Virus record (IMG/VR): IMGVR_UViG_3300049982_000206
Direction: 5' to 3' (one strand)
From: an uncultured virus (IMG/VR IMGVR_UViG_3300049982_000206)
Taxonomy: Duplodnaviria > Heunggongvirae > Uroviricota > Caudoviricetes
Length of the DNA: 64,000 nt
The notes under the pieces are model-generated. The model was given only the letters and a program-made list of their open reading frames with translations, searched no databases and was not told where the DNA came from. Of this stretch, positions 5,072-33,652 are shown piece after piece. Position numbers and translations under genes: made by a program. How positions within the stretch are numbered: the first letter of the stretch is position 1; every line of letters starts with the position of its first letter.

Positions 5072-5290
5072 GTGACCATCCCAGACGCTGAGCCCCGCCT
5101 CGAAGCCGGCAGCTTCGCCCGGAGAGCGATCCTCGACTACCTGTCGATCGTGCTCATCCTGGCTGGAGCTGCCGGCTTCGACGTGCTCGTCTGGCTGATG
5201 GAATGGCGGGCAGGCCTCGCCGTGATCTTCCTGTACATCGCTGCCGTCGGCTTTGTCGTCGGCATGGACCGCGAGGGGGGTCGTCGGTGA
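5072..5290 (+). CDS. small two-TM membrane protein
   Basis: Two hydrophobic segments; GTG 7 nt after promoter -10; typical position before portal. Confidence 0.7.
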   Translation: MTIPDAEPRLEAGSFARRAILDYLSIVLILAGAAGFDVLVWLMEWRAGLAVIFLYIAAVGFVVGMDREGGRR

Positions 5291-7695
5291 CCCGTTTCCT
5301 GCCGACGTTGCGCCGGTCGTCCAGCCCGGCCGTCATGATGAGCGCAGCGATGGAGGCCAAGGTTGTCCTGGCCGACTACTACGCCTCACTGCACCAGTTC
5401 GAGTCCGGCCGGCGAGCGAGGTACTGGCCGATCGAGCGCGCCGTCGCGGAGGGATACGAAAGGGTCATCTGGGTCTTCAAGGCGGTCAACACGATCGGCG
5501 CCGACCACGCCCGGTTGCCGTTCAAGCTGCGGCAGGGCGGCGAGATCATCGAGGACCACCCGCTGTGCCGCGTACTGAACAAGAAGGCGAACGAACTGGA
5601 GACCGGCCAGATCTTCAGGAAGCGGCTGTCCGCTCAGGTGTCGCTCTCGAAGCCGGGTGCGTTCGTCGAGAAGACGTACAGCAACGGCGGGACCATCAAA
5701 GAAGTGCACCTGCTGCCACCCTCCCGTGTCGAGATCATGCCAGGCGAGCCCGGCACCGGCGTACTGATCGACCACTTCCGCCTCACCCTGCGGACTGGTG
5801 GCTACCGCGAGATCGACCCGAAGAACGTGCTCTGGTTCCGCGACCCGCACCCCATCGATCCGTACAGCGGTGTTACCCCGCTGGAAGCGGCCGGTCTCAG
5901 CGTTGAGCTGGACTACTTCGCCCGGCTCTACAACGTCAGCTTCATGCGGAACGACGGCCGTCCCGGCGGAGTGCTCGCCGTGCGAAACCCGAACGGCACC
6001 GCCAACGACATCTCCGAAGCGTCCATGGACCGGATCGAGGCCAGGTTCGGCCGCGGCCCGGTCGAGGCCGGGAAGCTTTCGGTCATCGCCGGTGAACTTG
6101 ACTATGTCGACCTGGCCACGCGCCCGCGCGACATGCAGTACACACAGACCAGCCGGAACAGCAAGATCGAACTGCTGTCCGCGTACGGCGTCCCGGAGTC
6201 TGTGCTCGGCTACTCCGCCGACCGGACTTTCGATAACGCGGACAACGAGCTGTACGTTTACTGGACCCGCACGATGGGGGCCCACAACGAGATCATCGTC
6301 TCCGGGTTCGACGAGGATTCCGATGACGACCTGGAGGGCTTCCTCGACACCTCCGGCATTGAGGTGCTGGAACGCCACGAGCGCACACGCCGCGAGGAGG
6401 CACGAGCCGAGGTCAGCGCCGGCCTGCGGTCCATCAAGTCATACGCCGATCTGGCCGGGTACGGCACTGAGATCGACGACACCCCACACACTCGCGCGCT
6501 GTACATCCCGACCGGTAAGACGCCGCTCCCCTCCCGCGAGAAGGACGCCGAGGCACTCGGGCTAGGCGAGCCCGTCGATACCGCTCCTCCCTCAGTAGCT
6601 GCAGGGGATCCCGCGGCGGCTCTCCCCCCGGGCCCGAACCCGGCCGAGGTGAGCGAGCCTCCCGCTGTCGGAGCGCCATCCACCCCGGACATGGGGCAGC
6701 AGCCGGCCGAACTCCCACCCGGGTACGCACCTGTCACAGCGGCCCAAGGGAACGCTCCTGTCGCGATCGGGGCAGCGCCATCATTCAAGGCTCTCCCGCC
6801 GGGCGTGCGGCCCGTGCTGCGCGTCAAGCGCTCGGCACCGACGCCTGTCCAGCAGACGCTGGAATCCGAACTCGACGAACGCGTCCGCGACCAGCTCGAA
6901 GACACGCTCGCGACCGCGCTCACGGTCATGGCGACACGATGGGTCGAGCGAACGGTTGCCCGACTGGAGTCGCCAAAGTCGCGCAAGGGCACCCGGCACT
7001 GGCTGGCCGACCGGCCAGAAGACACTCGCGGCGGAAGCAAGGCACTCGACTCCGCCAAGGCCGTCAACGAGGAGCAGTGGAGCAGCGAAGCGGAGACCGG
7101 CACCCTGCCGATCATCGCCGACGCCGCTACCGTTGCGGCCGCCGCACTGATCTCAGACCTTGATGCCGACGACGACGGCACCATCGCTACATCCGTGCTC
7201 GTGGCGAGCCTGGTGGCCACGGTCGTCCGGCTGATCTCCGACTCCGCGGGGAACCAGGCCGTACGGCTGATTCGCCTGATCAACGAGGCCGACCAAAACG
7301 ACCAGTCCATGGTAGAGATCGTCGACCTGGTGCGCGCGCAGGGCGCTAGATTCACAGCGTGGGCTCGCGGATTGGCCACCCAGGCTGCCACAGCCACCTT
7401 GAACGGTGCGCGCGAGGCCGCTTCGGAGGAGATCGGCGCGACCACCGGTGTCGAGATCACCCGAGACTGGTTGAGCCGGCGCGACGAGCGGGTGAGGGAC
7501 AGCCACCACGAGGCCGACGGCCAGCGCCAGCCACTCGGACAGCCGTTCCTCGTCGGCGATTCGCTGCTGCGGTTCCCCGCTGATCCGCTCGCTCCCGTTC
7601 ACGAAACCGCCGGTTGCCGCTGCCGCCTTCTGCACCGGTCGGTCCGGACGGGGATGTTCGTCAGACCGCCTGTCGAGTTGTCCCAAGCATCCTGA
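5287..7695 (+). CDS. portal protein fused to MuF/gp7-like head morphogenesis domain
   Basis: HK97-like portal motifs (YSGVTPLEAA, NDGRPGGVL, YGVPESVLG); C-terminal WLSRRDERVRDSHHEADGQ...FPADP...GCRC. Confidence 0.9.
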   Translation: MTRFLPTLRRSSSPAVMMSAAMEAKVVLADYYASLHQFESGRRARYWPIERAVAEGYERVIWVFKAVNTIGADHARLPFKLRQGGEIIEDHPLCRVLNKKANELETGQIFRKRLSAQVSLSKPGAFVEKTYSNGGTIKEVHLLPPSRVEIMPGEPGTGVLIDHFRLTLRTGGYREIDPKNVLWFRDPHPIDPYSGVTPLEAAGLSVELDYFARLYNVSFMRNDGRPGGVLAVRNPNGTANDISEASMDRIEARFGRGPVEAGKLSVIAGELDYVDLATRPRDMQYTQTSRNSKIELLSAYGVPESVLGYSADRTFDNADNELYVYWTRTMGAHNEIIVSGFDEDSDDDLEGFLDTSGIEVLERHERTRREEARAEVSAGLRSIKSYADLAGYGTEIDDTPHTRALYIPTGKTPLPSREKDAEALGLGEPVDTAPPSVAAGDPAAALPPGPNPAEVSEPPAVGAPSTPDMGQQPAELPPGYAPVTAAQGNAPVAIGAAPSFKALPPGVRPVLRVKRSAPTPVQQTLESELDERVRDQLEDTLATALTVMATRWVERTVARLESPKSRKGTRHWLADRPEDTRGGSKALDSAKAVNEEQWSSEAETGTLPIIADAATVAAAALISDLDADDDGTIATSVLVASLVATVVRLISDSAGNQAVRLIRLINEADQNDQSMVEIVDLVRAQGARFTAWARGLATQAATATLNGAREAASEEIGATTGVEITRDWLSRRDERVRDSHHEADGQRQPLGQPFLVGDSLLRFPADPLAPVHETAGCRCRLLHRSVRTGMFVRPPVELSQAS

Positions 7696-7699
7696 TCGC

Positions 7700-7733
7700 C
7701 GACGCGACGCTAACGCCTACCCCGGGGCAACGT
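7700..7733 (+). promoter_or_regulatory. phage promoter motif
   Basis: CGACGCGACGCTAAC-N13-CAACGT. Confidence 0.8.
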
Positions 7734-7767
7734 AGGCGCGTCACCACCACAGTCGGAAGGGCCACCT

Positions 7768-10700
7768 GTGAGCATCGTCGAGCAGCCTCAATCTGCCCCC
7801 CGCCCCGCCCTTCACCTCAACGTCGAAACCGACGAGACGAAGGTACGGCGGCCGGCCTGGGACGAGGTCGCACACCCTCGTGACCGCGTCGGCCGGTTCA
7901 TCGAGACCGGCGCCGAGGTTCGTGTCTGGGGCGGCGCGCTGGCCAAGGTCGTGCGCAACGTCGGCGGTGGCCGGATCGAGATCGAGCGCCTGTCGGACCA
8001 CTCCCACGTGATCGTGCACCGCAACTACCTGACGGTGACCAAGCGGCCTGACGGTACGGCGCCCACATCGAAGCGTGATGCCAACGTCCAGGCGCTGCCC
8101 GAGAAGGCGCCGGACCCGGACGCTGTCGAGGTGCCGAAGCCCACCACGCCACCTGACGTGGACATGGAAGACATCGGGAACACGCTCGATCACTTCCTGC
8201 GCCGGATGGACCCAGAGGCCGCCGAACGCGTGCACGCCGCGTCAGAGGACTACCTGCGGGCACTCGGCAACGACGTCCCGGACGACGAGGCTGACGAGCG
8301 CGCCCACTTGATCGGGGTCCTGGACGACATCGACGGCAAGTACCCCACTGAGCGCGCCATTCTGATGTCCACGCGGGCACTCCGCGACGAGGCCCAGAAG
8401 GAGCCGGACGGCAACCCTGAGGTCGCCCGCCAGGTCGCGGACGACGACCCCGTGACGGTGCGCCCCGGGCAGCCACGCGAGCCCGGCGTACCGATTCCAC
8501 CGGCGCCCAGCGAAACAGAGCCCGTTGCGGGACGGCTCGTGCATGATGGCGACGTCCTGCAGACGCGCATGGGACGGGTCACTGTCGTCGGCGAGCCGGT
8601 CAAGCAGCCCAACGGCTCCTACGCTCTGCGGCTCGATCGCGGGAACGGGAACCCGCCTGTGGAGATGGTTGTCGGCAGCCGTGACCGTGTCCAGCGCGAG
8701 AAGCCAGCTACCGCCGATCCCACACCGGCCCCGCCAGCCCGCGGCGCCGTCGGCTCGCCGGATGCCCAGCCGCTCGTCCCAGACGCACCAGTCACCGACA
8801 CCCCCGCAGTTGACAAGCCGGACAGCACCGAGGCGAACCCGCGCCGGTACCGGACGTCTCCCTCGGGTGCACGCGAGGCGGCCTACGCCGCAGAGGTGCA
8901 AGAGTCCGACGGGTACGAGGCTGGCTTCACCGTCGACGGCTGGCACGTCACCGTGACCGACCCGAACTCAGCCCTGTGGTCGCTGGCCGGTATCCGCGAC
9001 ATCCACGACGACAACCTCGACCCGTCCGTGCGAGCGTCGTTGACACCCGAACTACGCCGCCGTGCCCGTATCAGCCGCGACGCCCTCGACCGGCTGATGG
9101 ACGACATCCGCCGCGACGCCGGGATCACCGGGAACGGCAAGCCATCGCCTCGGATCGCGGACACGAACGCCCCGGACGCTACGCCCGAAGCACCTGCCGC
9201 CGCACCTCCGGAGCCGGTGAAGCCCGAGCGGCGCCAGCTCGATGGGTTCAGCGCGGCCGAGTCCGCGACAATCCACAACGCCGTCGAGGACCACGCGGCG
9301 CAGTACTACCGTGGACCGGCCACACCCACTGCAGACAACGCGGCCGGCTACGTCGGCGGGATCGACGCGGCGACTCGGTACGTGACCGAAGGCCACCTCA
9401 AAGACCTGCTCGAAACACACGGCATGGCAAAGGTCACGCAGGCCGTTCTAGGTGTCATCCGCGACGACGAGTCGGTCCTGACCCGCACCCAGGAGGACCG
9501 CAACAACCGCAAGGCCGAGCGAGACGCCAAGCTGGCCGAGATCAACCAGCGTGCGGGGGCCGCCGCACAGGTTGAGAACTGGGACGAGGCACTCCGCGGC
9601 CTCGACGAGATCGAGACCATCGACCCGACGTACCGTCCGGGCGGTCTGTCCGTCGACGAGCTGCGGACCCGGCTGACGCGAGCCCGTGGCACAGACTCCG
9701 CACCGCAGAACGATGCCCCCGAGGCCGTGCCCGACCAGGCGCCCGAGGCCGTGCCTGACCAGGCGCCGTCGGAGACGCCTGCTGCGGTTGAGCCGTCGAC
9801 CGCACCGGCAAAGCCTCGGTTTGCGACCGTGGAGGCGGTACGGCAGTGGCTGCGCGGACCAGGCTCGACCCCGCAGCTCGCGCGCGAGGATCCCGAACGC
9901 GCCGCGCGGCATCGCGCAACGAATGCTCGAATCGCCAACGACCCGGCGCTGACTCTCTCCGCAGGTGGCCGGCTGATCGTTCACCGCAACCCCACCATCG
10001 GCGGCAACAAAGAGTGGCGAATCGCGTCCCCCGCGAACGGGCTACACCTCGGCAGGGCAGGCACCGGGCGGAACAAGGAAGAAGCGTTGCAGTTGGCTGC
10101 GCTGATGGAGTCGCACGTCGATGCTGAAGGAAACCCGATCCCATTCGACGCGGACGACATCAACGCCCGGATCCGGACATGGCGAGACAAAGACGGGCTC
10201 GGGCTCGGGAACCTGCTGCTGGAGGACCGGGCGAAGGTAGAGCCGGGACGTCGGCGGGGGGCCGACTGGAAAGACCCCTGGTGGGAAGGCCAAGCGCCAC
10301 AACCCTTGCCTGAGCGCGCACCGGAGGCCGCTCCGGCACCGGAGCGATCCGGGAACGAGTACGCCGCAGAGGCGTACGCTGCAAACCAGCGCGGTGACCG
10401 GTCCGCAGCGCTGCGGGCAATCCTCGAAGCTGAGCGTGTCGACCCCGGCCAGGACGAGCGGTGGCGTCGATTGCGCCGCGAGTACCGTGGCCTCCCCCCG
10501 GTGCCGACCGGGACGCCACTCGACGCCCAGGGCGACACCATCCGCACGCCGGAACTCGTCGTACCGGATTCCGCGGCGCCCGCCGAGACGAACCTGCCCG
10601 ATGCAGACGTTGACCTGGATGAGCCCGGCGACGAGGAAGTGCCTGCCGTACCGCCCGTCGAAGACACACCCACTTCGGCGCCGACGCTGTCCGCTGATGG

Positions 10701-13700
10701 CCGGTGGAAGATCCCGGCGCCGGAAACCACCGGTGACCCAGAGGCCGACAAGCGCGCGCTTGCAGCCTCGCTGCGAGCGGCTGCGCGCGCGTCTGACAAC
10801 GCCGCAGACCGCGCCGCGCTGAACTGGGCCGCGCGCCAACTGGTGCCGCCGGCGCCGCGCCCGCGCCCAGAAGGCGGCGCGCCGCGCAAGCCACGCACGC
10901 GCTCCCCGCAGCGGCAGGCGCGCGCCCAGGCCGATGGTGACGTCGCGGCGGCGCGCGCGGCGCGCAAGCCTCCGGTATCACCGGAAGCGCGCATGGCGGC
11001 GCTGGCAGCGCTCGCGGACGAACTCGACCGCCTCGGAGTGGGTGGCGTCCCAGTCACCCAACCGACCGTCACCGCGACCGGTGAAGGCAGCGAGGAGCAG
11101 AGCGGCACGTCGATCGTGACCGCGCTGCGGTCGTTCGTCGCGGAGTACAAGAAGCGGCGCGCCCAGGTGGACTCCGGTGCGGCACCTGTAGACAGTGGGG
11201 ACAACCAAGGAGGTACCGATGGGTCGGCTGGCGATGCTGGCACAGGAGCACTACGAGAAGCTACTGCCGAAGACGTACGCGGGTCTGACCGACCCGGAGA
11301 CGTTCTTCCGGAATCTGGAGACGGAAGCGGAGCAGCAGATCGACGACCTGACGGACCGCTTCGCGGACGTGGATCTGAACCCGGCGGAGACGTTCGAGGA
11401 GAAGGTGGGGAGGCTCAAGAACGCCCGGCAGCGGGCGGAGGAGATCGTGCTGCGGGAGACGGTGCTGATCGACCCCGCAACGGTGGAGACGGAGACCGAC
11501 TCGCAGGAGACGGACTACCCGTCGACGACGGATCTGGCGACGCCGGAGGACCGGGAGTTGGCGAGCGCGATGGCCGACTTCCAGGAAGCGACAGAGGAAT
11601 TGGCGGAGATCCGGAGCAGCAGTCAGCCTCCGCAGAGTCAGTCCGCGTCGCCGATGCCGGACTCGCCTCCGACGGAGTAACCGAGGCCGACCAGCCGGCA
11701 CCGTCACCTGCCGCTGTCCCGGTCAACGTCTCCAGCGGCGGGGACTTCCAGCCGCGAGGCGTCGACGACTTCGCGCCGGCTGGCAAGGTCGGCAAGCTGA
11801 ACGCGAACATCGCCGCGCTGCGGACCCTGCGTACCTTGCAAGGCGAGAAGCGGCCTGCGACTCCGGAAGAGCAGGCGGTCCTGGCGAAGTGGGCTGGCTG
11901 GGGTGGTTTGCCGGAGGTGTTCGACGAGTTCCGCGGCGACTTCGCGCCGCAGCGCGAGGAGCTGCGCGGTCTGCTGTCGGATGCGGAGTGGAACGAGGCG
12001 AAGCGGAACACGCTGAACGCGCACTACACCGACGCCCGCGTGGTCGAGGCTGTCTGGCAGGCAGTCGGGGATCTCGGGTTCCAAGGTGGCCGCGTCCTGG
12101 AGCCCGGGTCCGGGTCGGGAACGTTCATCGGGTTCGCTCCGGACAACGCCAACATGGTCGGGGTCGAGCTGGACTCCACCACCGCGGCGCTGTCGCAGTA
12201 TCTCTACCCGAACGCGATCATCCGCAACGAGTCATTCGCCCGAACCAACCTGCCTGACGGATCGTTTGACGCGACCGTCGGCAACGTCCCGTTCGGTAAG
12301 TTCGCGCTGACCGACCGCCGGCACAACCCCGACAGCGAGTCGATTCACAACCACTTCATCTTGAAGTCGATGGACCTGACCCGGCCCGGCGGCCTGGTGG
12401 CCGTTCTGACGTCCCGGTTCACCCTGGACTCCCTGGACTCGGGCGCCCGCCGGAAGATGGCGGAGAAGGGCGATCTCGTCGGAGCAGTACGGCTCCCGAC
12501 CGGATCGCACCAGCGCGCGTCCGGCACGGATGTCATCGAGGACCTGCTGATCTTCCGCGTCCGCGCTCGGGGCGAGACACCGCACGCGGACCAGTCGTGG
12601 GTCACCTCGACAAAGAAGCAGATCGACGACCAGGTCATCCCGGTGAACGACTACTGGGAAGCGCACCCGGAGAACGTGCTCGGCGTGATGAGCGCCGAGG
12701 CTGGCCGGTTCGGGACGGGCGACCTTGTCGTCCGCGGCGATCGAGACATGGCCGATCTGCCTGCGGTGCTGAGCGGCATCGTGGACCGGGCTCGCGAAGA
12801 CGGATTGGTTGCGTCTGCCTCCAATGGCCCTCGCGCCGATCTCGTCGACGCCGACGAGACGCGTCACGACGGTCACATCCGTGTCGAGGGAGACGGCACG
12901 TTCACACAGGCCCACCGAGGCGCCTCGGTGCCGTTCGAGGTGTCCGCCGTCCAGCGGCCTGAACTCGCCTCACTGATCGGGCTCCGGGACACCTTGAGCC
13001 AGCTTCTCGACGCTGAAGCCTCCAGCCGCGGCCTCACCCCGGAAATCACCAACCTCCGCGGACAACTGAACGTCCAGTACGACGCGTACGTCGCGAAGCA
13101 CGGCCCGATCAACCGGTTCAAGCTGTCCAAGACTGGCACCCGGATTCGTCCGCAGCAGGGCGGGTTCCGGCGCGACCCGATGTCAGCAGTTGTCCGCGCG
13201 TTGGAGACGTACGACCCCAGCGACGGGACCGCCGAGAAGGCGAGCATCTTCACGAAGCGCGCGGTTGCCCCGCGGGAACTCCGCACCAGCACGGACGACC
13301 CGGCGGATGCGGTCAGCCTGTCCGTCGACACGTACGGCGACGTCAACCTTCCCGCGATCGCGGACATGCTCGGTACCGACGAGGCCACTGCCCGGGAGCG
13401 TCTCACCGGCTACGTGTTTGAGCAGCCGCCAACGCGCGCAGGCACCAGCGAGGTGGATGCCCGGATCGAGGCCAACGCCGGGATCGACCCCTCCGGCGAC
13501 CTCCTCGCTGTGGCCGGCATCGAGGCCCCCTCGTTCGTGGTCCCGCCCATCGACGAGGACGCGATCGGGACGCCCGGGAAGTTGGAGCCATCTGCGGCGT
13601 ACCTGTCCGGCAACGTTCGCCGCAAACTTGCGATCGCTCAGGCGGCGGCCGCGGTTGACCCCCGTTTCCAGGCGAACGTCGACGCTCTGAAGGCGGTCAT

Positions 13701-16700
13701 CCCGGCCGACCTCGGCGCGGACGAGATCGACGCGCGCCTCGGCGCGGCCTGGATCGACAAGGAGACCGTGCAGCAGTTCCTTCAGGAACTGTTGCAGGAC
13801 CGCTACAACACCGTGCGGGTCTCTCACTCCGGTGGGTCGATCTGGTCCGTCGACGGCCCGAACTACGGAAACCTCTCTACCGAGGTGTGGGGCACCCAGC
13901 GGCGGTCAGCGAGCGAACTCGTGCAATCGCTGCTGGAGCAACGGTCGATCAAGATCTCGAAGCCGAAGAGTGAGGGTGGGGGCCCTGACCTCGAAGCGAC
14001 CCTGGCTGCGCAGGAGAAGGCGACGGCGATCCAGGAGCGGTTCGGTGAGTGGCTGTGGGAGAACCCTGACCGGGCACGAAAGATGCAGGCCCGCTACAAC
14101 GACATGTTCAATGCGCTCGTGCTGCGGAAGTACGACGGGTCGAGGCGCTCCTACCCCGGCATGGCGGAGTCGTGGAAGCCGCGCGATCACCAGGGCAACG
14201 CGGTCGAGCGGATCGTCAACGAGCCAACCGCGATGCTCGCTCACGTCGTCGGTGCCGGCAAGACGGCCGAGATGGTCATCGGTACGGCGGAACTGAAGCG
14301 GCTTGGGATGTCCCGCAAGCCGTCCATCATCGTCCCGAACCACATGCTGGAACAGTTCACCCGCGAGTACCTGGAGATCTACCCGCAGGCCAAGTTGCTG
14401 GCCGCCGGGTCAGAGGACATGCAAGGCGACAAACGCCGCGAGTTCGTCGGCCGGGCCGCGACCGGCGACTGGGATGCGGTGATCCTCACCCAGGGTGCGT
14501 TCGAGTCGATCCCGATGTCGCAGGAGCAGCAGCAGGCGTACATCGACCGCGAGATGGCTTCGATGCGCTCCCAGCTGGCCCAGGCGCAGGCCGACGAGAT
14601 GGCGGCCCGGGTTGCAGGCGATATGGGCGACCGCAAGAACATCGAGAAGACCGTCAAGAAGATGGAGACGTCCCTGCTCCGCGCCGAAGAGGCGCTCAAG
14701 AAGAAGATGGATAAGCAGAAGGACGTCGGGGTCACTTGGGAGCAGACCGGCATCGACTACCTGTTCGTCGATGAGGCGCATGGCTACTCCAACCTGCGCA
14801 CCCTGTCGAACATCCAGGGCGCTGGCACCACCGGCTCCGACAAAGCCACCGACCTGCACATGAAGCTGGAGTACCTGCGGGAAACGTCGCAGTCCGGGCG
14901 GGTCGCGACGTTCGCGACCGGTACGCCGATCCGGAACACCGTCACGCAGGCGTACGTAATGCAGAGGTTCCTGCGGCCGGACCTGATGGAAGAGGCCGGC
15001 ATCCACAGTTTCGATCAGTGGGCGAGCACGTTCGGCGAAACCGTCGACTCGATGGAGTTGAAGCCCGAGGGCACCGGGTTCCGGCAGACAACCCGGTTCG
15101 CGAAGTTCCGCAACGTGCCCGAGTTCCTGAAGATGTTCCACACCTTCGCCGACGTCAAGATGGCCGAGGACCTGGCCCTGCCGACGCCGGACCTGGTCGG
15201 GGGCAAGGCGACCACAGTCACCGTGCCGTCGTCCGAAGCGCTCGCGGACTACATCCAAGATCTCGGCCAGCGCGCTGACGACGTGCGCAACGGTGTGGTC
15301 GAACCCGAAGAAGACAACATGTTGAAGATCAGCGGCGACGGGCGCAAGGCAGCCCTGTCGATGAAGCTGGTCGGCGGTGACCACGAGCCCGGGAAGATCG
15401 AAGCTGCCGCGGACCAGATCGCGTCGATCTGGGAAGAGAACAAGGGCAACGTCTACACCGACCCGAAGACCGGCGAAATCGACTCGATCGCTGGCGGCAT
15501 GCAGATCGTGTTCCTCGACATGGGCACCCCCAACTCAGAGGGCAAGTGGAACGGGTACGACAAGCTCAAGCAGGAACTCACAGCCCGGGGCATGGACCCA
15601 TCAACGATCCGGTACGTGCACGAGGCGAAGAACGACGCGCAGAAGGCGGAGATGTTCGCCGCCGCCCGCGCCGGCCGGATCTCCGTTCTGATCGGGTCCA
15701 GCGAGAAAATGGGCGTCGGAACCAACATGCAACGGCGTGCCGTTGCTCTGCACCACCTGGACGCGCCGTGGCGCCCTGCCGACGTCGAGCAGCGCGACGG
15801 CCGGATCATGCGACAGGGCAACCTGAACAAGGAAGTACAGATCCTGCGGTACGTCACCGAGGGCAGCTTCGACGCCTACATGTGGCAGACGCTGGAGCGC
15901 AAGGCGAAGTTCATCAACCAGATCATGCGCGGCTCTTTGGACGTCCGCGAGATCGACGACATCGGCGACACCGCGATGTCGTACGGCGAAATCAAGGCTC
16001 TCGCAACAGGCAACCCCGACCTGCTGGAGAAGGCGAAGCTCGACACCGAGTTGACGAAACTGGAGCGGCTAGCGCGGGCCCACAACCGCACCCAGACGAA
16101 CCTGAAGTCCGACATCGGAAACCAGACCCGCAACGCGCAGACGTGGGAGTCGTACGCCGCCCAGTACGACGCCGCTCTCGGGCAACGCGTAAACACTCGT
16201 GGCGAAGCGTTCACGATGGGCGTGGGCGGGATGAAGTACAGCAAGCGGGCTGACGCGGCGGACGCCTTGCGCGACCGGTTCAGCAGCCTCATGAACCAGG
16301 ACCGCTGGGGCGAGGCGCCCGAGCGCAGCGTGGGCACGGTGGGCGGATTTGCCGTCACCGGCCAGGTCACTCCCGTTCCTGGCGGCGGCCGGCAGGTCAT
16401 CGTCCGCTTTGAGGGCGTCCCGGGTGAGGTGACCCGAGTTACGACCGACGACCTGAGACTGTCCGGGATCGGACTCGTCACTCGCCTGGAAAGTTCGCTG
16501 GAAGCATTCGAGGCGAAGCGGGACCGACTGCTTGAGTCCGCTGCAGAGGCCCGCATCGAAGTCAACCGGATGCAGGAACGTGTCGGTGCCGGCTTCCCGA
16601 AGGCGGCCGAGCTGGAGGCCGTGCGGCTGCGGTCGCAGCGGATCAACATGAAGATCGAGCGTGACGCACGCCGGTCCGCCGGAGAAGACATTCCGTTCGA

Positions 16701-16893
16701 CCCGCTGATCGATTCCGCGCAGTACGACGCCACGCTGCCAGTCGAGGAGGCCACCGCACCGGACGACTTCGGCGCAGTCACCGCCGCGGACCTGCGGCAG
16801 GCGGCCGAGGCGCGTGCTGACGCCGAGAAGAGCCTTGTTGTCGAGGCTGGCCGTGTGGTTGTGCGCCTGGTCCAGCGAAAGGTGGCTGCGTGA
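7768..16893 (+). CDS. giant DarB-like N6-adenine methyltransferase / SF2 (SNF2-like) helicase
   Basis: MTase motif I VLEPGSGSG and motif IV GNVPF; helicase AHVVGAGKT, DEAH, TGTP, QRDGRIMRQGN; N-terminal HPRDRVGRF. Confidence 0.9.
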   Translation: MSIVEQPQSAPRPALHLNVETDETKVRRPAWDEVAHPRDRVGRFIETGAEVRVWGGALAKVVRNVGGGRIEIERLSDHSHVIVHRNYLTVTKRPDGTAPTSKRDANVQALPEKAPDPDAVEVPKPTTPPDVDMEDIGNTLDHFLRRMDPEAAERVHAASEDYLRALGNDVPDDEADERAHLIGVLDDIDGKYPTERAILMSTRALRDEAQKEPDGNPEVARQVADDDPVTVRPGQPREPGVPIPPAPSETEPVAGRLVHDGDVLQTRMGRVTVVGEPVKQPNGSYALRLDRGNGNPPVEMVVGSRDRVQREKPATADPTPAPPARGAVGSPDAQPLVPDAPVTDTPAVDKPDSTEANPRRYRTSPSGAREAAYAAEVQESDGYEAGFTVDGWHVTVTDPNSALWSLAGIRDIHDDNLDPSVRASLTPELRRRARISRDALDRLMDDIRRDAGITGNGKPSPRIADTNAPDATPEAPAAAPPEPVKPERRQLDGFSAAESATIHNAVEDHAAQYYRGPATPTADNAAGYVGGIDAATRYVTEGHLKDLLETHGMAKVTQAVLGVIRDDESVLTRTQEDRNNRKAERDAKLAEINQRAGAAAQVENWDEALRGLDEIETIDPTYRPGGLSVDELRTRLTRARGTDSAPQNDAPEAVPDQAPEAVPDQAPSETPAAVEPSTAPAKPRFATVEAVRQWLRGPGSTPQLAREDPERAARHRATNARIANDPALTLSAGGRLIVHRNPTIGGNKEWRIASPANGLHLGRAGTGRNKEEALQLAALMESHVDAEGNPIPFDADDINARIRTWRDKDGLGLGNLLLEDRAKVEPGRRRGADWKDPWWEGQAPQPLPERAPEAAPAPERSGNEYAAEAYAANQRGDRSAALRAILEAERVDPGQDERWRRLRREYRGLPPVPTGTPLDAQGDTIRTPELVVPDSAAPAETNLPDADVDLDEPGDEEVPAVPPVEDTPTSAPTLSADGRWKIPAPETTGDPEADKRALAASLRAAARASDNAADRAALNWAARQLVPPAPRPRPEGGAPRKPRTRSPQRQARAQADGDVAAARAARKPPVSPEARMAALAALADELDRLGVGGVPVTQPTVTATGEGSEEQSGTSIVTALRSFVAEYKKRRAQVDSGAAPVDSGDNQGGTDGSAGDAGTGALREATAEDVRGSDRPGDVLPESGDGSGAADRRPDGPLRGRGSEPGGDVRGEGGEAQERPAAGGGDRAAGDGADRPRNGGDGDRLAGDGLPVDDGSGDAGGPGVGERDGRLPGSDRGIGGDPEQQSASAESVRVADAGLASDGVTEADQPAPSPAAVPVNVSSGGDFQPRGVDDFAPAGKVGKLNANIAALRTLRTLQGEKRPATPEEQAVLAKWAGWGGLPEVFDEFRGDFAPQREELRGLLSDAEWNEAKRNTLNAHYTDARVVEAVWQAVGDLGFQGGRVLEPGSGSGTFIGFAPDNANMVGVELDSTTAALSQYLYPNAIIRNESFARTNLPDGSFDATVGNVPFGKFALTDRRHNPDSESIHNHFILKSMDLTRPGGLVAVLTSRFTLDSLDSGARRKMAEKGDLVGAVRLPTGSHQRASGTDVIEDLLIFRVRARGETPHADQSWVTSTKKQIDDQVIPVNDYWEAHPENVLGVMSAEAGRFGTGDLVVRGDRDMADLPAVLSGIVDRAREDGLVASASNGPRADLVDADETRHDGHIRVEGDGTFTQAHRGASVPFEVSAVQRPELASLIGLRDTLSQLLDAEASSRGLTPEITNLRGQLNVQYDAYVAKHGPINRFKLSKTGTRIRPQQGGFRRDPMSAVVRALETYDPSDGTAEKASIFTKRAVAPRELRTSTDDPADAVSLSVDTYGDVNLPAIADMLGTDEATARERLTGYVFEQPPTRAGTSEVDARIEANAGIDPSGDLLAVAGIEAPSFVVPPIDEDAIGTPGKLEPSAAYLSGNVRRKLAIAQAAAAVDPRFQANVDALKAVIPADLGADEIDARLGAAWIDKETVQQFLQELLQDRYNTVRVSHSGGSIWSVDGPNYGNLSTEVWGTQRRSASELVQSLLEQRSIKISKPKSEGGGPDLEATLAAQEKATAIQERFGEWLWENPDRARKMQARYNDMFNALVLRKYDGSRRSYPGMAESWKPRDHQGNAVERIVNEPTAMLAHVVGAGKTAEMVIGTAELKRLGMSRKPSIIVPNHMLEQFTREYLEIYPQAKLLAAGSEDMQGDKRREFVGRAATGDWDAVILTQGAFESIPMSQEQQQAYIDREMASMRSQLAQAQADEMAARVAGDMGDRKNIEKTVKKMETSLLRAEEALKKKMDKQKDVGVTWEQTGIDYLFVDEAHGYSNLRTLSNIQGAGTTGSDKATDLHMKLEYLRETSQSGRVATFATGTPIRNTVTQAYVMQRFLRPDLMEEAGIHSFDQWASTFGETVDSMELKPEGTGFRQTTRFAKFRNVPEFLKMFHTFADVKMAEDLALPTPDLVGGKATTVTVPSSEALADYIQDLGQRADDVRNGVVEPEEDNMLKISGDGRKAALSMKLVGGDHEPGKIEAAADQIASIWEENKGNVYTDPKTGEIDSIAGGMQIVFLDMGTPNSEGKWNGYDKLKQELTARGMDPSTIRYVHEAKNDAQKAEMFAAARAGRISVLIGSSEKMGVGTNMQRRAVALHHLDAPWRPADVEQRDGRIMRQGNLNKEVQILRYVTEGSFDAYMWQTLERKAKFINQIMRGSLDVREIDDIGDTAMSYGEIKALATGNPDLLEKAKLDTELTKLERLARAHNRTQTNLKSDIGNQTRNAQTWESYAAQYDAALGQRVNTRGEAFTMGVGGMKYSKRADAADALRDRFSSLMNQDRWGEAPERSVGTVGGFAVTGQVTPVPGGGRQVIVRFEGVPGEVTRVTTDDLRLSGIGLVTRLESSLEAFEAKRDRLLESAAEARIEVNRMQERVGAGFPKAAELEAVRLRSQRINMKIERDARRSAGEDIPFDPLIDSAQYDATLPVEEATAPDDFGAVTAADLRQAAEARADAEKSLVVEAGRVVVRLVQRKVAA
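9717..9767 (+). repeat. 24-nt tandem duplication (APEAVPDQ x2) in linker
   Basis: CCCGAGGCCGTGCCYGACCAGGCG twice. Confidence 0.7.
11219..11680 (+). CDS. TnpV-like protein nested in another frame of the giant gene
   Basis: AAGGAGG at 11207-11213, ATG 11219; helical protein containing ARQRAEEIVLRE, similar to the TnpV C-terminal signature. Confidence 0.7.
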   Translation: MGRLAMLAQEHYEKLLPKTYAGLTDPETFFRNLETEAEQQIDDLTDRFADVDLNPAETFEEKVGRLKNARQRAEEIVLRETVLIDPATVETETDSQETDYPSTTDLATPEDRELASAMADFQEATEELAEIRSSSQPPQSQSASPMPDSPPTE

Positions 16894-18125: not shown

Positions 18126-20720
18126 ATGTCCACACCAACGCTCGCGTTCAAGAGCGCCGTCCTCGCTCCGGACAAGGCCGCCGAACTCGTCATCGCCGAG
18201 GCCGAGAGCATCGTCGGGGGCGTAGCGGCCTTTGAGGGCGACGGGATCGTGACCGCGATCGTCTCGGTCACGGGCGTGGTCGATGAGGTCGACGACATCA
18301 TCGAGCCCGGAGCGTACGCCGCAACCCTGTTGAAGCGTCTGCCCAAGGTCTGCTGGCACCACTCGTGGGAGCACCCGATCGGCAAGGTGCTTTGGATCGA
18401 GGAGCTGCTGCCCGGCGACCCGCGGCTCCCCGCGAAGACCCGCGATGGTCAGCCGTGGCCGGCCGAAGCTGGCGCCCTGGTCGCGAAGATGCAGATGAAC
18501 ATGGCGTCCGAGCGTGGCCGCGAGGCCTACTCGGCGATCAAGTTCTACTCCGAGAGCGGCGAGTGCGAGTACTCGATCGGCTACAAGGTCCCCTCGGGCA
18601 AGTCGACTCGCGACAGCAAGGGCATCCGCCGCATCAAGGAGATGGACCTGTTCGAGCTGTCCTTCGTGCTGTTCGGTGCCCACACCATGACGGGCACCCT
18701 CGCGTTGAAGGCTGCTGTCAGCTTGATGAACAAGGCCAACCACGGGACCGTCACGATCAGCAAGAAGGCGATCGACGACGAGTTCGAGCGGCTGATGGCC
18801 GATGTCGACTTCGACGAACTCGCCGATGAAGACGAGCTGCAGCCCACGTCCGACGAACCGGGTCAGGTCGTTCAGGACGAGCAGGGAGTCCTCGAGATCG
18901 AGGACGACGAGGACGACGAGGAAGCCGAGCTGCATCGCGCGGCTCTGGAGGATCCCACCTTCGAAATGGCGGAAGGTCGCCAGGGCAAGAACTACGCCTC
19001 GGACGCCGACACCGACATCACCGACACCTGCAAGGGATGCGGTGACGACGTCGTATTCGACAGCATGAACGGCTGGATGCGCGAGGACGGGTCGTACGGC
19101 CACGAAGACGGCACCACGCACTCCGACCACCTGCCGCCGCCGCCCGAGTTCAAGGCTGAGGGAGGCGCCGACCGCAACCGAGGCGGAGCCGCGAACCTGC
19201 GCCGCTGGTACGTGGCAGGCGCAGACGGCCAGATCGCGTGGGGTAGCAAGGGTGACTTCGATCAGTGCGTTGCGGTCGCGAGCCGACACATGGCCCCCGA
19301 GCGCGCCAAGGGGTATTGCAACCTTCGGCACCAGGACGCAGTCGGTGCTCCCCCGGGCCAGGGCCACCCGGAAGGAAAGGCCGCAACGTACGACCAGCCC
19401 GAGACCACCGCTCCGGACAAGGACCCTGTGACCGGCCCGGATCAGGCCAAGCACACCGGCGTAATGGTTGCCCTGTTCCCTGGCCCAGAGGCGGCGAAGA
19501 AGATCGCCGTACGAGGCGGCGAGGCGCCCGAGGATCTGCACGTCACCCTCGTCTACCTCGGCGACGTATTCGACGCAGCGGGCGAAGGGCTCACCCTCGG
19601 CTCCGCCACGAGCCAGATCGTCGCCGCGGCACAAGCGGCAGCGGCGACCACCAAGCCGCTGAGCGGAACCGTCGGCGGCCTCGGCAAGTTCCCCGACTTC
19701 GGCAACGGCGTACCCGTCTGGTCCCCCGTGGACGTCGTCGGGCTCACCGCTGCACGCGAGGCAGTCGTCGACGCCTTGCAGGCAGCCGGCCTGCCAGTCA
19801 AGACCGACCACGGCTTCACGCCACACATGACGCTCGGCTACAACCTCGATCTCAACCTCATCCCCGACACAGACCCCGTACCGGTCGAGTTCACGCACCT
19901 CGTGGTCGCAATCGGCGGAACCCACACACGCATCCCGCTCGGCGACGACCTCGGAGCAGATGCCTCGGGTGCGGCCATCGCAGGCACACCCACGCAGCCC
20001 GAGCAGGACGACCCCATGGAGAAGGGCTATGACCCGATGATCGAGACCGGACCGCACGCCGGGCACAAGGCCGCCGTACCGGCTGAGGTAGCAAAGGCGT
20101 TCCCTCGACTTCCGGGCACCTTGGAGGAGCGCACGCAGGCACTGAGCGGCGCGCTCGACGAGGCGCTCCTGGGGAACTTCGACGACGACGCTCGCAAAGA
20201 GCGGTACGTCAACATCGACGGCACCTGGATGGACCGCGTCATCTGCACGCTGAACCACTGGTCCTCGAACAGCAACGACAGCTGCCAGTCCTACGAGTTC
20301 CCGTACACCATCAGCGAGGACGGCACGGTCTCCCTCGGCGAACCGTCACCGGTCAAGCTCACTCTCACCGCGGAACTCGACGGCGACGAGGTGGACGACG
20401 TGCCGGCCGGGGACCTGATGCCGCTGGTCGAACGCATCAACGACGTGATCCACGGCCTCAAGACTCTCGGTCCCGTCGAGATCAAGGCAGGCCGGGTGCT
20501 GTCCGCTTCGATCGCGGCACGCCTCAAGAGTGCTGCCGAGCACCTGGTCAGCGTGCTGAAGGCCGGCGGCATCGATATCACCCTTCCCGCTGAAGAGACC
20601 GTCGCTCCTGTCGTCGAAACCGAGACGACCGCGCCGTCCGCTCACGGCAAGTCCGCCAACCTCAACCCATCCGATGTGGCAGCGCTCCTCGCTGACATCG
20701 AGACCATCACCGCGGAGTAG
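18126..20720 (+). CDS. HK97-family prohead protease fused to 2H phosphoesterase and other modules
   Basis: DIIEPGAY, WHH..PIG, YSIGY, LFELSFVLFGA; paired HxT motifs LHVTL and PHMTL. Confidence 0.88.
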   Translation: MSTPTLAFKSAVLAPDKAAELVIAEAESIVGGVAAFEGDGIVTAIVSVTGVVDEVDDIIEPGAYAATLLKRLPKVCWHHSWEHPIGKVLWIEELLPGDPRLPAKTRDGQPWPAEAGALVAKMQMNMASERGREAYSAIKFYSESGECEYSIGYKVPSGKSTRDSKGIRRIKEMDLFELSFVLFGAHTMTGTLALKAAVSLMNKANHGTVTISKKAIDDEFERLMADVDFDELADEDELQPTSDEPGQVVQDEQGVLEIEDDEDDEEAELHRAALEDPTFEMAEGRQGKNYASDADTDITDTCKGCGDDVVFDSMNGWMREDGSYGHEDGTTHSDHLPPPPEFKAEGGADRNRGGAANLRRWYVAGADGQIAWGSKGDFDQCVAVASRHMAPERAKGYCNLRHQDAVGAPPGQGHPEGKAATYDQPETTAPDKDPVTGPDQAKHTGVMVALFPGPEAAKKIAVRGGEAPEDLHVTLVYLGDVFDAAGEGLTLGSATSQIVAAAQAAAATTKPLSGTVGGLGKFPDFGNGVPVWSPVDVVGLTAAREAVVDALQAAGLPVKTDHGFTPHMTLGYNLDLNLIPDTDPVPVEFTHLVVAIGGTHTRIPLGDDLGADASGAAIAGTPTQPEQDDPMEKGYDPMIETGPHAGHKAAVPAEVAKAFPRLPGTLEERTQALSGALDEALLGNFDDDARKERYVNIDGTWMDRVICTLNHWSSNSNDSCQSYEFPYTISEDGTVSLGEPSPVKLTLTAELDGDEVDDVPAGDLMPLVERINDVIHGLKTLGPVEIKAGRVLSASIAARLKSAAEHLVSVLKAGGIDITLPAEETVAPVVETETTAPSAHGKSANLNPSDVAALLADIETITAE

Positions 20721-26395: not shown

Positions 26396-26887
26396 GTGGG
26401 GCTACTGGCGCGGATCGGGTTCGGTTCGCGGGAGATCGCCACACCGGCGACCCCCGCGTCCGGATCACGCCTGCTCTATCCGAAGACCTCCGGCTGGTAC
26501 GAGAAGGACTCAGCCGGAGTCGAGCGACTGCTGACGCACGCCATCGAGCCCTACATCTTCGCCGTCACCGGCCCTCTCGCAGCCGCCACCGGCAAGTCCC
26601 GGGTCTACCTCGAAGGCAGCTACCTAGTCGAAACAGTCCGGGCATCCGTCAACACATCCCCCGCCGGATCGGCAATCACCGTCGACGTCAACAAGAACGG
26701 TACGACGATCTACACCACTCAGTCGGCGCGACCATCTATTGCCGCCGCCGCGAACAGTGCCACCGGGAACAGCCCCGCGATCGCGAACTTCGATGCTGGC
26801 GACTACATGACCGTCGACATCGATACCGTCGGATCAAGCGACCCTGGCGCTGACCTCACCGTCGTCGTACGGCTCCGGAAGATCTGA
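26396..26887 (+). CDS. virion structural protein
   Basis: TVDVNKNGTTI...TVDIDTVGS beta domain. Confidence 0.65.
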   Translation: MGLLARIGFGSREIATPATPASGSRLLYPKTSGWYEKDSAGVERLLTHAIEPYIFAVTGPLAAATGKSRVYLEGSYLVETVRASVNTSPAGSAITVDVNKNGTTIYTTQSARPSIAAAANSATGNSPAIANFDAGDYMTVDIDTVGSSDPGADLTVVVRLRKI

Positions 26888-28842
26888 TGGCACAAGGCGC
26901 GGGCTACACCTTCAACCCGGCCACGGTCACCGGTACGACGGTCCGGGACATGGCCGGCTACTTCCTCAACGGCACCATCGTCGGATCGGCCGCGCTCGAT
27001 GCTGGAGGCAAGTACGGGCAGGGGTTGCACTGCACCGGCGGAGCTATGCGGGTCGTCGTACCGGCCGACACCTATCCGGTTGACACCAGCGGCGGCTTGA
27101 CCATGGCCGCTTGGGTCAAGCTCGACGACAACACCGCCGCGGCGCGCTGTATCGCTTCCGCCGCCAGCGGATCGGGCGTCGACGTCCGCCTCTACGCATC
27201 GAACTCCGCAGGCAATGTGGAAGCCCGAATTGAGGGCGCTACCTTCAGCACCACCAAGAGCATCCGCGACGGCGCCCACCACCACGTGATGGTCGTCGTG
27301 GACCGGCTGTTCGGCCCCGGCTCGGAATCGGTCCGGATCGTTGTCGATGGCGTCGCCGAGCTGACCTCGACCGGCCTTACAACCGGACTCGGATACAGCG
27401 GGGACGTGACCATGGAGGTCGGCCGGAACGCGCTCGGCGCCGTCGAGCCGCTGTTCGGCATTGTCGACGACTTTCGTTGGTGGAACGACCCTGTCGAATT
27501 GGCTGCCTGGCCAGGCATCATCGCCGCGGAGCAGACCGATTTCCAGCTCGGGATCTACCCACTCGACACCAACGCCAATGACGTCAGCATCTACAACCGG
27601 GGTATCGCGGTCGCCCCCTCCGCATCCTTCGTCCCCGGCATGTACGGCCGCGGCCTGGTCTCCGGTGCGGCGGCTGCCGGCGCCTCAGGAACGATCGCAC
27701 TACCGGACTGCGACCGGCTGTCCCTGACCGGCTGGATCCGGGTAGACACCCTCCCAACCGTCACAGCAGCACCGATCCTCGCAATCACCGATGCCAGCGG
27801 CAACATTCGGATGCGCACGGTCGTCAACACCAACGGCACCATCACCTCGACCTGGACCACGATCAACTACGGAACTCTGTCAGTCACCAGCACCGGTGCC
27901 GTCACGCCCGGGGTGTGGGCACGCATCCAGGTCAGCATGAACCCGACCTACATCGCGATCCGGCTGAACAGCACCACAGAGCAGCAGACCAGCACGGGGA
28001 ACAGCACGCCGCATCTGTCGCCAACCGTCGACGGCCTCAACCGGCTGTACATCGGCGGCGACGCCGTTGCCGGTGGCCAGTGCACTTGGAACTACCTCAC
28101 CCTGACCAAGAACTTCATCAACGACATGACCCTGTACTGGGGAGGTCCGCCCGCTGTCACGCCTTATGCGCCTGCGAACGTTCCGCGGGGTGTGTACGCC
28201 GCCAACGAGAACACCGGTACGGCGGTCAATGACCGGTCCCCCTCGCACAACAACCTGGCACTCACGGGTGCTGGGTCCTGGGTCACCGGCGTGCAGGGCT
28301 CGGCGATCGGTTCAAACGGAACCGGCCCTGGCGCCAACAAGACCTCGGGACTGGCATGGGACGCGTCTCCGAAGGGCTGGGCGTTCTCGGGCTGGTTCAA
28401 GTGCCGGTCGGGCTCATCGGGTGCCCGGATACTGGTCTGGCGCAACTCCACGAAAGACTGCGCGCATGCGTTCTTCCTCGCCAACGCGTTCCAGGTCCGG
28501 CTGTTCGATGCCGCCGGTGACACCGGGATCCAGTCACCCAATGGCAGCGCCGTCACCGCGGAAACCTGGACGCACCTCGCGGCGTCCTGCGACGGGGCAA
28601 CTATCCGGTTCTTCAAAGCCGGGATCTACTACGGTTCGGTGGCCTACTCGCGTGGGGCGCTGCTCGCGCCTAACCAGCTGTACGTCGGTGGCGATCAGCC
28701 GGATGGGGCGGTCGCGGATGTCGATGACCTGGTCATGTTCGACACCCCGATTTCGCCGGGCAATGTGGCGTGGCTGTTCGCCAACCCAGGGAAGTACTAC
28801 GCGCCAGTTGCTCAGTTCGCAGGGTGGGGTGTGCCCCTGTAG
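26887..28842 (+). CDS. LamG/concanavalin A-like lectin repeat protein
   Basis: Three LamG-like units (TMAAWVK, SLTGWIR, FSGWFK; WTHLAAS; VDD). Confidence 0.8.
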   Translation: MAQGAGYTFNPATVTGTTVRDMAGYFLNGTIVGSAALDAGGKYGQGLHCTGGAMRVVVPADTYPVDTSGGLTMAAWVKLDDNTAAARCIASAASGSGVDVRLYASNSAGNVEARIEGATFSTTKSIRDGAHHHVMVVVDRLFGPGSESVRIVVDGVAELTSTGLTTGLGYSGDVTMEVGRNALGAVEPLFGIVDDFRWWNDPVELAAWPGIIAAEQTDFQLGIYPLDTNANDVSIYNRGIAVAPSASFVPGMYGRGLVSGAAAAGASGTIALPDCDRLSLTGWIRVDTLPTVTAAPILAITDASGNIRMRTVVNTNGTITSTWTTINYGTLSVTSTGAVTPGVWARIQVSMNPTYIAIRLNSTTEQQTSTGNSTPHLSPTVDGLNRLYIGGDAVAGGQCTWNYLTLTKNFINDMTLYWGGPPAVTPYAPANVPRGVYAANENTGTAVNDRSPSHNNLALTGAGSWVTGVQGSAIGSNGTGPGANKTSGLAWDASPKGWAFSGWFKCRSGSSGARILVWRNSTKDCAHAFFLANAFQVRLFDAAGDTGIQSPNGSAVTAETWTHLAASCDGATIRFFKAGIYYGSVAYSRGALLAPNQLYVGGDQPDGAVADVDDLVMFDTPISPGNVAWLFANPGKYYAPVAQFAGWGVPL

Positions 28843-33350: not shown

Positions 33351-33652
33351 GCGTCCGCCGGTTCCTGGAGTACGTCAACAGACTCCCTAGAACCGCCTGC
33401 ATCCGGACCACAGCAGAGCAACGCACACGGGAGGAGTGGACGGTGGAGCGCGAGTTGCTGTCGCAGCTGGTCGAAGTCGTGTCGGTCAGTGCCTCCGGCA
33501 AGCAGCTCAAGAAGAACATCGTCATCCCCCGTCCTGACTACGTGAAGCGGCGCAGCAAGGCGCTCGCCTCCGGCGTCACCAACGTCCCTGACGGGGCGTT
33601 CAAGCAGGGCATCGCGGTGCTCGCAGCGACGAGTCCGGCGGTACGCCGATGA
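33224..33652 (+). CDS. tail assembly chaperone -1 frameshift extension (GT)
   Basis: Open -1 frame from GGGGGAA to 33652 (WGDVSYDFQHELGLD...RLP). Confidence 0.75.
   Translation, partial: GGSIAVLRLVDRRWGDVSYDFQHELGLDARGIWAEPGTPGFIGVRRFLEYVNRLPRTACIRTTAEQRTREEWTVERELLSQLVEVVSVSASGKQLKKNIVIPRPDYVKRRSKALASGVTNVPDGAFKQGIAVLAATSPAVRR

Follow-up and report, generated by a model that had tools for sequence, protein, structure and literature searches.

A TnpV-like gene nested out of frame within the reading frame of a DarB-like antirestriction protein

Gene pairs in which one partner is fully embedded in the other, out of frame and with separate initiation of translation, are exemplified by Rz/Rz1 of phage lambda and by the two-chain C5 methyltransferase M.EcoHK31I, whose interacting products are proven. 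Here, we describe a TnpV-like gene that lies inside the open reading frame (ORF) of a giant DarB-like methyltransferase (MTase)/helicase on a stretch of 64,000 nucleotides, in its full length referred to as the window, from an uncultured virus of the Caudoviricetes (IMG/VR record IMGVR_UViG_3300049982_000206). As in Rz/Rz1 and M.EcoHK31I, one gene is wholly contained in the other; in contrast to these pairs, the present case is known from sequence alone, and all that the outer frame specifies within the overlap is a low-complexity spacer. To our knowledge, no function has been established for TnpV, and none of the papers listed in our literature search is, by its title, a functional study of this protein family.

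TnpV proteins of the Firmicutes (PF14198) are carried by Clostridium-type mobilisable transposons and by integrative and conjugative elements. The protein described here shares with them the helical core, the R-A-E-E-I-V-L-R-E motif and the carriage by mobile elements, whereas in the actinobacterial branch to which it belongs, the tail is acidic and variable and the gene lies inside that of a helicase. DarB of phage P1 and the 'polyvalent proteins' (Iyer et al., 2017; PMC5512222) are likewise giant MTase and SNF2-helicase proteins of phages or plasmids with a varying domain content, but here a second gene shares the DNA that encodes the spacer in front of the MTase domain. A term search of the polyvalent-protein paper, limited to what such a search reaches, returned no mention of TnpV, overlapping genes or frameshifts. 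A related arrangement is the ShiLan-type HNH insertion of actinophages, which has a start and a stop of its own and lies out of frame in a DNA methylase gene whose frame stays free of stop codons (Arsenault et al., 2025; PMC11855218). ShiLan is reported to encode a homing endonuclease and to behave as an actively homing insertion. TnpV, in contrast, lacks a nuclease domain, sits at a constant site in front of the MTase domain and has diverged together with its hosts in several orders of the Actinobacteria. Each of the three elements, nested out-of-frame genes, TnpV and DarB-like polyvalent proteins, is known on its own; for their combination, a TnpV gene nested in a DarB-like helicase, we found no report in a literature search that had subscription journals outside its coverage.

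A small gene inside the frame of a giant enzyme

By direct reading of the sequence, the nested gene comprises 153 codons between an ATG at 11219 and a TAA at 11678-11680, and the five nucleotides 11214-11218 separate it from a Shine-Dalgarno sequence. The frame of the giant protein is free of stop codons from 7714 to 16893 and thus runs through the nested gene without interruption. An ORF of 153 aa with AAGGAGG-N5-ATG in another frame of the plus strand, fully nested in the DarB-like enzyme and situated just upstream of its MTase domain, had been proposed in the original prediction; the coordinates, the protein sequence quoted for it and the relative positions of both ORFs all hold. The features on which the argument relies are as follows.

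7768 to 16893, plus strand: giant ORF for a DarB-like polyvalent antirestriction protein of 3041 aa with N-terminal extension, spacer, N6-adenine MTase and SNF2-type helicase
7768 to 11217, plus strand: N-terminal extension of the giant protein, 1150 aa, coding in the giant frame as judged by codon-position GC
11207 to 11213, plus strand: Shine-Dalgarno sequence AAGGAGG of the nested gene, read from the sequence, 5 nt before the ATG
11219 to 11680, plus strand: nested TnpV-like gene, 153 aa, in the +1 frame of the giant ORF, recognized by translation, third-position GC and homologues
11218 to 11682, plus strand: Gly/Asp/Arg-rich residues 1151-1305 of the giant protein, a spacer read in frame -1 relative to TnpV
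11746 to 12694, plus strand: start of the MTase module, with the motif F-x-P..D-F-A-P-A-G at 11746, the S-adenosylmethionine (SAM) motif VLEPGSGSGTF and NVPFG
13579 to 16671, plus strand: DarB-like central and SNF2 helicase region, with GAGKT, DEAH, Helicase_C and PHROG 10089

The two frames differ sharply in their coding signature. In windows of 150 nt between 11225 and 11600, the GC content at third codon positions amounts to 0.88-0.98 in the TnpV frame vs 0.32-0.46 in the giant frame, and the giant frame has the highest third-position GC on both flanks, up to ~11200 and again from ~11675. In the frame plot, the coding signature moves to the TnpV frame at 11200-11680 only; other weak maxima of codon-position GC within the giant ORF, e.g., at 10175-10775, fit Ala/Pro/Gly-rich coding in the giant frame. 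Residues 1151-1305 of the giant protein consist to 51.6% of Gly, Asp and Arg (25% in the rest of the protein), contain no aromatics and only 10% hydrophobic residues, which agrees with the earlier description of the giant frame as low-complexity across the nested gene, and this part of the protein is probably disordered. The codon-position GC and the composition of the giant protein therefore show that the protein-level signal resides in the small frame, while the giant frame supplies a low-complexity spacer.

Between 11167 and 11836, the giant frame contains neither a stop codon nor an ATG, GTG or TTG. For this single window, the probability that the giant frame remains open over TnpV is 0.045 under a synonymous-codon null with helicase codon usage and 0.17 under permutation within the gene. 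Over the set of homologous loci described below, the lack of stop codons exceeds what chance would give by a very wide margin. A GGAG/GAGG-type purine-rich stretch is present within 20 nt before the TnpV ATG in most of the related loci listed. A consensus scan of 10600-12000 for promoters and terminators found no site, and the RNA fold around the TnpV start (11150-11260) showed no special structure (z = -0.08).

The nested protein consists of a helical core (residues 1-90) and a variable acidic/proline-rich tail, and its AlphaFold2 model is helical, with block means of the predicted local distance difference test of ~84-91 over residues 1-80 and low confidence in the tail. In a collection of 5.8 billion proteins it has 16 homologues, 14 of them 138-159 aa long and 55-69% identical to it, and the resulting alignment of 17 sequences has 23 invariant columns. 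A profile search of 1.84 billion representatives gave 1065 clusters at E<=1e-3, the best 150 of which are all stand-alone proteins of 78-303 aa. When the 17-sequence alignment was compared by hhalign with ten Firmicutes-type TnpV proteins, both matched with a probability of 97.2% (E 2.8e-11) over 85 columns covering query positions 1-84. Part of this match is the helix motif R-A-E-E-[IL]-V-x-R-E, residues 72-80 of the nested protein, in which A73, E74, E75, V77, R79 and E80 are invariant among the 17 sequences; in the alignment of the ten Firmicutes-type proteins, R108, A109, E110, E111, I112, V113, R115 and E116 are invariant. The best feature scores in the ESM Atlas (0.84-0.88) fall on actinobacterial clusters labelled 'TnpV' or hypothetical, which we take as a lead only. 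Searches of NCBIfam and PHROGs gave no family for the nested protein.

Upkeep of the second frame in homologous loci

Relatives of TnpV were detected by tblastn in 47 actinobacterial plasmids, and the same type of search against 50,697 phage records gave no match. Our comparison is built on 19 plasmid loci, the window, one locus from a metagenome-assembled genome and five high-GC metagenome loci; after omission of L008 and L035, which are truncated at contig ends, and of L049, which is 92% identical to L047, 23 non-redundant loci remained. A complete inner gene with its own start inside an open outer frame is found in 21 of these 23 loci. In these 21, no stop codon interrupts the -1 frame anywhere along TnpV, when 6.4 such loci are expected from synonymous-codon permutation within TnpV; all 23 loci together have 4 stop codons in this frame vs 33.2 expected. 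Where at least 900 nt of ORF follow downstream (17 loci), the open frame is in every case the helicase's own frame, and it has no stop codon at all, vs 42.5 expected from helicase codon usage, with 2.5 loci expected to be open. The trace of this avoidance can be seen in the codons themselves, as T-ending TnpV codons precede AA, AG or GA codons in only 4 of 877 cases, vs 154 of 2211 elsewhere in TnpV (Fisher 2.7e-18).

Both controls behave differently. Helicase genes have merely a mild bias of the same kind (T-ending codons before AA/AG/GA in 307 of 4257 cases vs 1351 of 15108), and windows of TnpV length taken from helicase genes are expected to be open in their own -1 frame in 2.9 of 13 loci, whereas the -1 frame of TnpV is open in 13 of 13. 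In 25 Firmicutes-type TnpV loci, 89 stop codons were counted in the -1 frame vs 84.4 expected, so that there is no overall depletion; a giant helicase does not adjoin the gene in the 11 loci of this type that were inspected. Both frames are under selection: TnpV shows conservation of its amino acids and an excess of changes at third codon positions, and the outer frame shows a depletion of stop codons under two nulls and against two controls, together with conserved flanks. The original prediction had named the conservation of both frames in homologous loci as a check.

Four plasmids in which the first tblastn had listed no TnpV were examined, and three of them (L053-L055) carry a small gene in the same nested position: in one plasmid the gene is clearly a TnpV (E 4e-21), and in two it encodes proteins of 193-202 aa whose only TnpV trait is an A-E-E-T-[VI]-L motif. 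No nested small gene was found in the fourth plasmid. The two longer proteins stem from Gordonia and Dietzia plasmids (L053:1946-2527; L054:2150-2758), are missed by the TnpV profile and lie in the same -1 nesting; they may represent a more divergent TnpV branch.

As to which frame is constrained, nucleotide differences between the loci L047 and L048 are distributed as 17, 10 and 40 over the three TnpV codon positions, and as 6, 2 and 14 between L047 and L049. In ten pairs, the changes amount to 192 synonymous and 540 non-synonymous ones in the TnpV frame, and to 82 and 652, respectively, in the helicase frame. These third-position changes and the existence of Firmicutes relatives indicate that TnpV is the constrained frame; the helicase frame above it is constrained mainly to stay open. 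TnpV is also probably the older frame, over which the spacer of the enzyme would have been laid. The claim that TnpV is the overprinted gene consequently has to be turned around.

In 15 of 26 loci, the stretch in front of the TnpV ATG encodes, when read in the helicase frame, a peptide of the form M-A-R/G-R-(basic)...Q-[LI]-S-[LFI]-x-x-[LF]-[WLF]; for several of these 15 peptides the ATG is preceded by GGAG, and looser variants exist in other loci. Examples lie at L001:8707-8790, L042:6916-7000, L005:1154-1241, L041:6808-7000 and L046:3787-3889. The peptide resembles both the beta-clamp-binding motif QL[SD]LF and the QLSLPL sequence of Hda. The TnpV start codon falls within a conserved D/N-E of the helicase frame, and a conserved F-x-P..Q-x-D-L-A-P-S-G motif immediately follows the TnpV stop in that frame. 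When counted from 60 nt before the TnpV stop, the first ATG, GTG or TTG lies beyond the beginning of this motif in 13 of 18 loci (two have a start before it, and three lack the full motif by the pattern used), and in seven loci, the window included, there is no helicase-frame start codon inside TnpV. With so few usable later starts and a conserved peptide upstream, the real ORF of the enzyme can be taken to wrap around TnpV.

Current annotations hide this layout. The original prediction expected standard gene callers to miss the nested gene, and such callers indeed report only one of the two frames over the overlap: either TnpV is given with a helicase shortened at its 5' end, or the giant ORF is given on its own. 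Eleven records (L001, L037, L040-L042, L045-L050; annotated by PGAP or DDBJ) have TnpV and a helicase that begins at a later TTG or GTG, with loss of conserved N-terminal sequence, and callers that keep TnpV begin this 'short' helicase at differing residues within the conserved region. In L002, L003 and L052, the long ORF is annotated and TnpV is omitted.

The favoured explanation and its rivals

With a probability of roughly 0.72 by our own estimate, the data reported here are best explained by one DNA stretch that is read in two frames, with TnpV nested in the ORF of a DarB-like enzyme. Translation of the enzyme would begin upstream of TnpV, by 3.4 kb in the window and by 50-350 nt in the plasmids, where it would yield the conserved M-A-R-R...Q-L-S-L-x-x-L-W peptide. 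The ribosome would then pass through all of TnpV in the -1 frame and produce a Gly/Asp/Arg-rich, probably disordered spacer of ~90-185 residues as a tether between the N-terminal part and the MTase domain. TnpV itself, a small helical protein, would be translated separately from the internal Shine-Dalgarno sequence and ATG, and both products may come from one mRNA. Selection keeps the amino acids of TnpV and in the other frame mainly forbids stop codons, via avoidance of T-ending codons before AA, AG and GA. The overlap would lock the two genes together and may couple their translation, and TnpV could act with the enzyme as a subunit, chaperone or regulator, a link to the enzyme that is genetic only; the original prediction had suggested a regulator, chaperone or inhibitor. 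That the dual-coding layout is a product of selection is, in our view, very likely; for TnpV as a physical partner of the enzyme we see an even chance.

Among the competing explanations, the best placed one, improbable as we consider it to be, treats TnpV as a selfish passenger, a mobile or formerly mobile gene that sits in the spacer, does nothing for the enzyme and is tolerated since the host frame stays open. The architecture would be that of ShiLan, where an out-of-frame gene with its own start is reported to lie in a stop-free host frame (PMC11855218). TnpV is named after transposons; the first tblastn found it in 47 plasmids vs 137 that match a 1601-nt query composed of TnpV and the MTase start; most of the matches listed for this query begin in the MTase part; and Firmicutes-type TnpV is not located beside such helicases in the 11 longer loci inspected. 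Against this, TnpV has no nuclease, recombinase or other mobility domain. Its site between the N-terminal peptide and the MTase motif remains the same even where TnpV is only 30-45% identical to that of the window, a constancy that suggests long co-descent rather than repeated homing. Moreover, three of the four seemingly 'TnpV-less' plasmids carry a nested TnpV or TnpV-like small gene at this place. Even less probable is that the two genes are plain neighbours, that the helicase starts only after TnpV, the open frame is untranslated and the giant ORF of the window is an accidental in-frame fusion. Such an arrangement is what PGAP or DDBJ annotate in 11 loci, and the -1 frame of high-GC genes is often open (single-locus probability of 0.4-1.0 in 8 of 23 loci by permutation). 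It leaves unexplained why 17 of 17 helicases share the frame -1 relative to TnpV, with no stop vs 42.5 expected, why a conserved peptide is encoded in the helicase frame upstream of TnpV, and why the 1150-aa upstream part in the window continues stop-free to 16893; the annotated later starts are TTG or GTG codons, cut into the conserved motif in 13 of 18 loci and vary by caller.

A programmed -1 ribosomal frameshift near the end of TnpV, resulting in a TnpV-MTase-helicase fusion, would profit from the fact that the helicase always lies in the -1 frame of TnpV, the geometry required for it. We regard it as very unlikely: a canonical X_XXY_YYZ heptamer in the TnpV frame occurs in 0 of 24 loci (canonical sites only), the -1 frame is open from before the TnpV ATG and has its own conserved N-terminal peptide, and no fusion is present among the best 150 of 1065 representatives (the longest has 303 aa) or, as weak evidence, as an in-frame TnpV fusion among proteins of 269-2000 aa. 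Hardly credible, finally, is an artefact in which an assembly indel or chance created the continuous ORF from a real locus of three genes, and this explanation is already largely refuted. The contig does come from a soil metagenome, and the TnpV frame has a TAG (11189-11191) that precedes the Shine-Dalgarno sequence by 15 nt and is placed such that a one-base error upstream would mimic the end of a preceding gene. Against this, a Logan contig of run X1 (2185 nt, depth 19.5), which probably represents a second assembly of the same sample and not a second sample, matches every position of 9615-11799 without a gap, and the indel list is empty for 11000-11800. Five relatives of the giant protein (3112-3395 aa, on contigs of 35-136 kb) are 67-76% identical to it over the full length and span the query region 1080-1420 completely at 58-67% identity; hence, this phage-like group has six members in all, and in each of them the spacer is part of one continuous giant ORF. 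In the plasmids L002, L037 and L052, which are independent of the window, the frame extends far upstream as well. The original prediction had named two mis-joined genes flanking TnpV as one finding that would overturn it, and the identical second assembly and the five continuous relatives speak against such a join.

Returning to the two-frame explanation, several observations weigh against it. The Pfam model PF14198 recognizes the nested protein (P0001) with 20.7 bits (E 4.2e-4) and thereby misses the gathering cut-off of 27 bits; it matches at E<=0.01 in six of 17 close homologues and in seven of 12 plasmid homologues, of which only L037 attains the cut-off (28.4 bits). On account of these sub-threshold scores, we have filed the protein as TnpV-like and as a divergent branch, and the family assignment made in the original prediction holds in this form, given the hhalign match to Firmicutes-type TnpV. 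Foldseek returned no match of the model in the PDB at E<=0.001, and the best scores of the VIA wide fold search (Z 6.2 for 2apl_A and 8b5l_t; Z 5.7 for lambda GamS) are below the level that is meaningful for helical models. For the closest relatives (P0003-P0016, P0019-P0023), nesting would follow from their proteins only. The giant protein of the window does not have the N-terminal peptide of the plasmid type and carries the 1150-aa extension in its place. Two loci, L004 and L039, have two stop codons each in the -1 frame, and in L039 this frame does not continue into a helicase ORF. The loci share descent, so the counts are not fully independent, with just one TnpV pair being at least 80% identical. 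Lastly, the -1 frame is also open without a helicase in six closely related low-GC Firmicutes-type loci (L009, L010, L011, L013, L017, L027), vs 0.74 expected.

A more far-reaching proposal, which we put forward tentatively and consider rather unlikely as it stands, is that antirestriction is the work of an obligate unit of two proteins, TnpV and the DarB-like enzyme, whose genes have long been interlocked in actinobacterial plasmids and some phages. The tether of the enzyme would be written in the -1 frame of its partner's gene over an overlap of 270-550 nt, ribosomes on the long ORF would cross the TnpV ribosome-binding site so that the overlap would set the ratio of TnpV to enzyme, and TnpV would keep the enzyme inactive or transfer-competent until a new host is reached. 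If true, this would be among the longest and most widely conserved out-of-frame overlaps in bacteria, hidden by annotation rules.

In bacteria, out-of-frame overlaps that are both long and conserved are rare and a matter of dispute, above all in high-GC genomes, where open alternative frames are usually dismissed as artefacts of composition, and the TnpV/helicase case passes synonymous-codon nulls and two independent controls. It would offer a clean model for the upkeep of a second frame, in which avoidance of stop codons alone gives rise to a disordered tether. It also corrects the annotation of widespread antirestriction enzymes of plasmids and phages, whose N-termini are cut in 11 of the records inspected and from which TnpV is omitted in three, and it provides a first firm genetic link of the orphan TnpV family to an enzyme, through which the function of TnpV becomes testable.

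Enzyme modules, related loci and phage setting

The assignment of the giant protein to the DarB-like proteins relies on its C-terminal 1737 aa, which match PHROG 10089 ('DarB-like antirestriction') with 1312 bits (E 0). The best stretch of this family-profile match covers residues 634-1664 of the piece starting at 11680, and PHROG matches to the MTase region cover residues 28-338 of the same piece. Pfam gives weak matches to ResIII (residues 2137-2257), Helicase_C (2611-2684) and SNF2-rel_dom. VLEPGSGSGTF, GNVPFG, GAGKT and VDEAHG are all present in the giant translation; we take them to represent the SAM-binding G-x-G-x-G motif, an N/D-P-P-F/Y-like motif, Walker A and DEAH, respectively, as they would be combined in an N6-adenine MTase with a helicase. 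Relatives of the giant protein carry the JGI label 'N12 class adenine-specific DNA methylase', and blastn matches to plasmid helicase genes begin at ~11766-11803. The 1150-aa N-terminal extension matches no Pfam or PHROG family, and it is conserved in the relatives to residue ~1132 (nucleotide ~11163). Scans of viral contigs with the TnpV alignment and with the giant-protein alignment yielded no relative. According to precomputed Pfam labels, the giant relatives P0022, P0033, P0042 and P0044 carry varied extra domains, e.g., Zeta toxin with AAA_33 or Phage Mu F, a variability that fits modular 'polyvalent' head-associated proteins.

Some of the related loci have features of their own. In L004 (6001-6645), a contig of a metagenome-assembled genome, the TnpV frame runs over 214 codons and the MTase motifs return in the helicase frame after two stops, which could be a frameshift, either real or derived from sequencing. 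The open frame of the six low-GC Firmicutes-type loci enters a small downstream gene that starts with M-T-L-L-E-D-L-W-Y-G, and the sister loci L012, L015, L016, L024 and L026 have 1-4 stops in the -1 frame.

The source contig is phage-like. A portal gene (5203-7695; PF04860, E 3.5e-38) directly precedes the giant ORF, and a prohead-protease fusion and RecT follow it. Phage-type context is found at 5203-7695, 26887-28842, 33649-38538 and 46628-48226, with portal, a Laminin_G_3 protein and RecT among the products. An ORF of 1629 aa without a family match may encode the tape-measure protein, a guess from its size and position only. The ORF at 18126-20720 encodes 864 aa and joins a Caudovirus prohead protease (PF04586, E 7.7e-8) to a member of the 2'-5' RNA ligase superfamily (PF13563, E 9.9e-12), an unusual fusion beside head genes.

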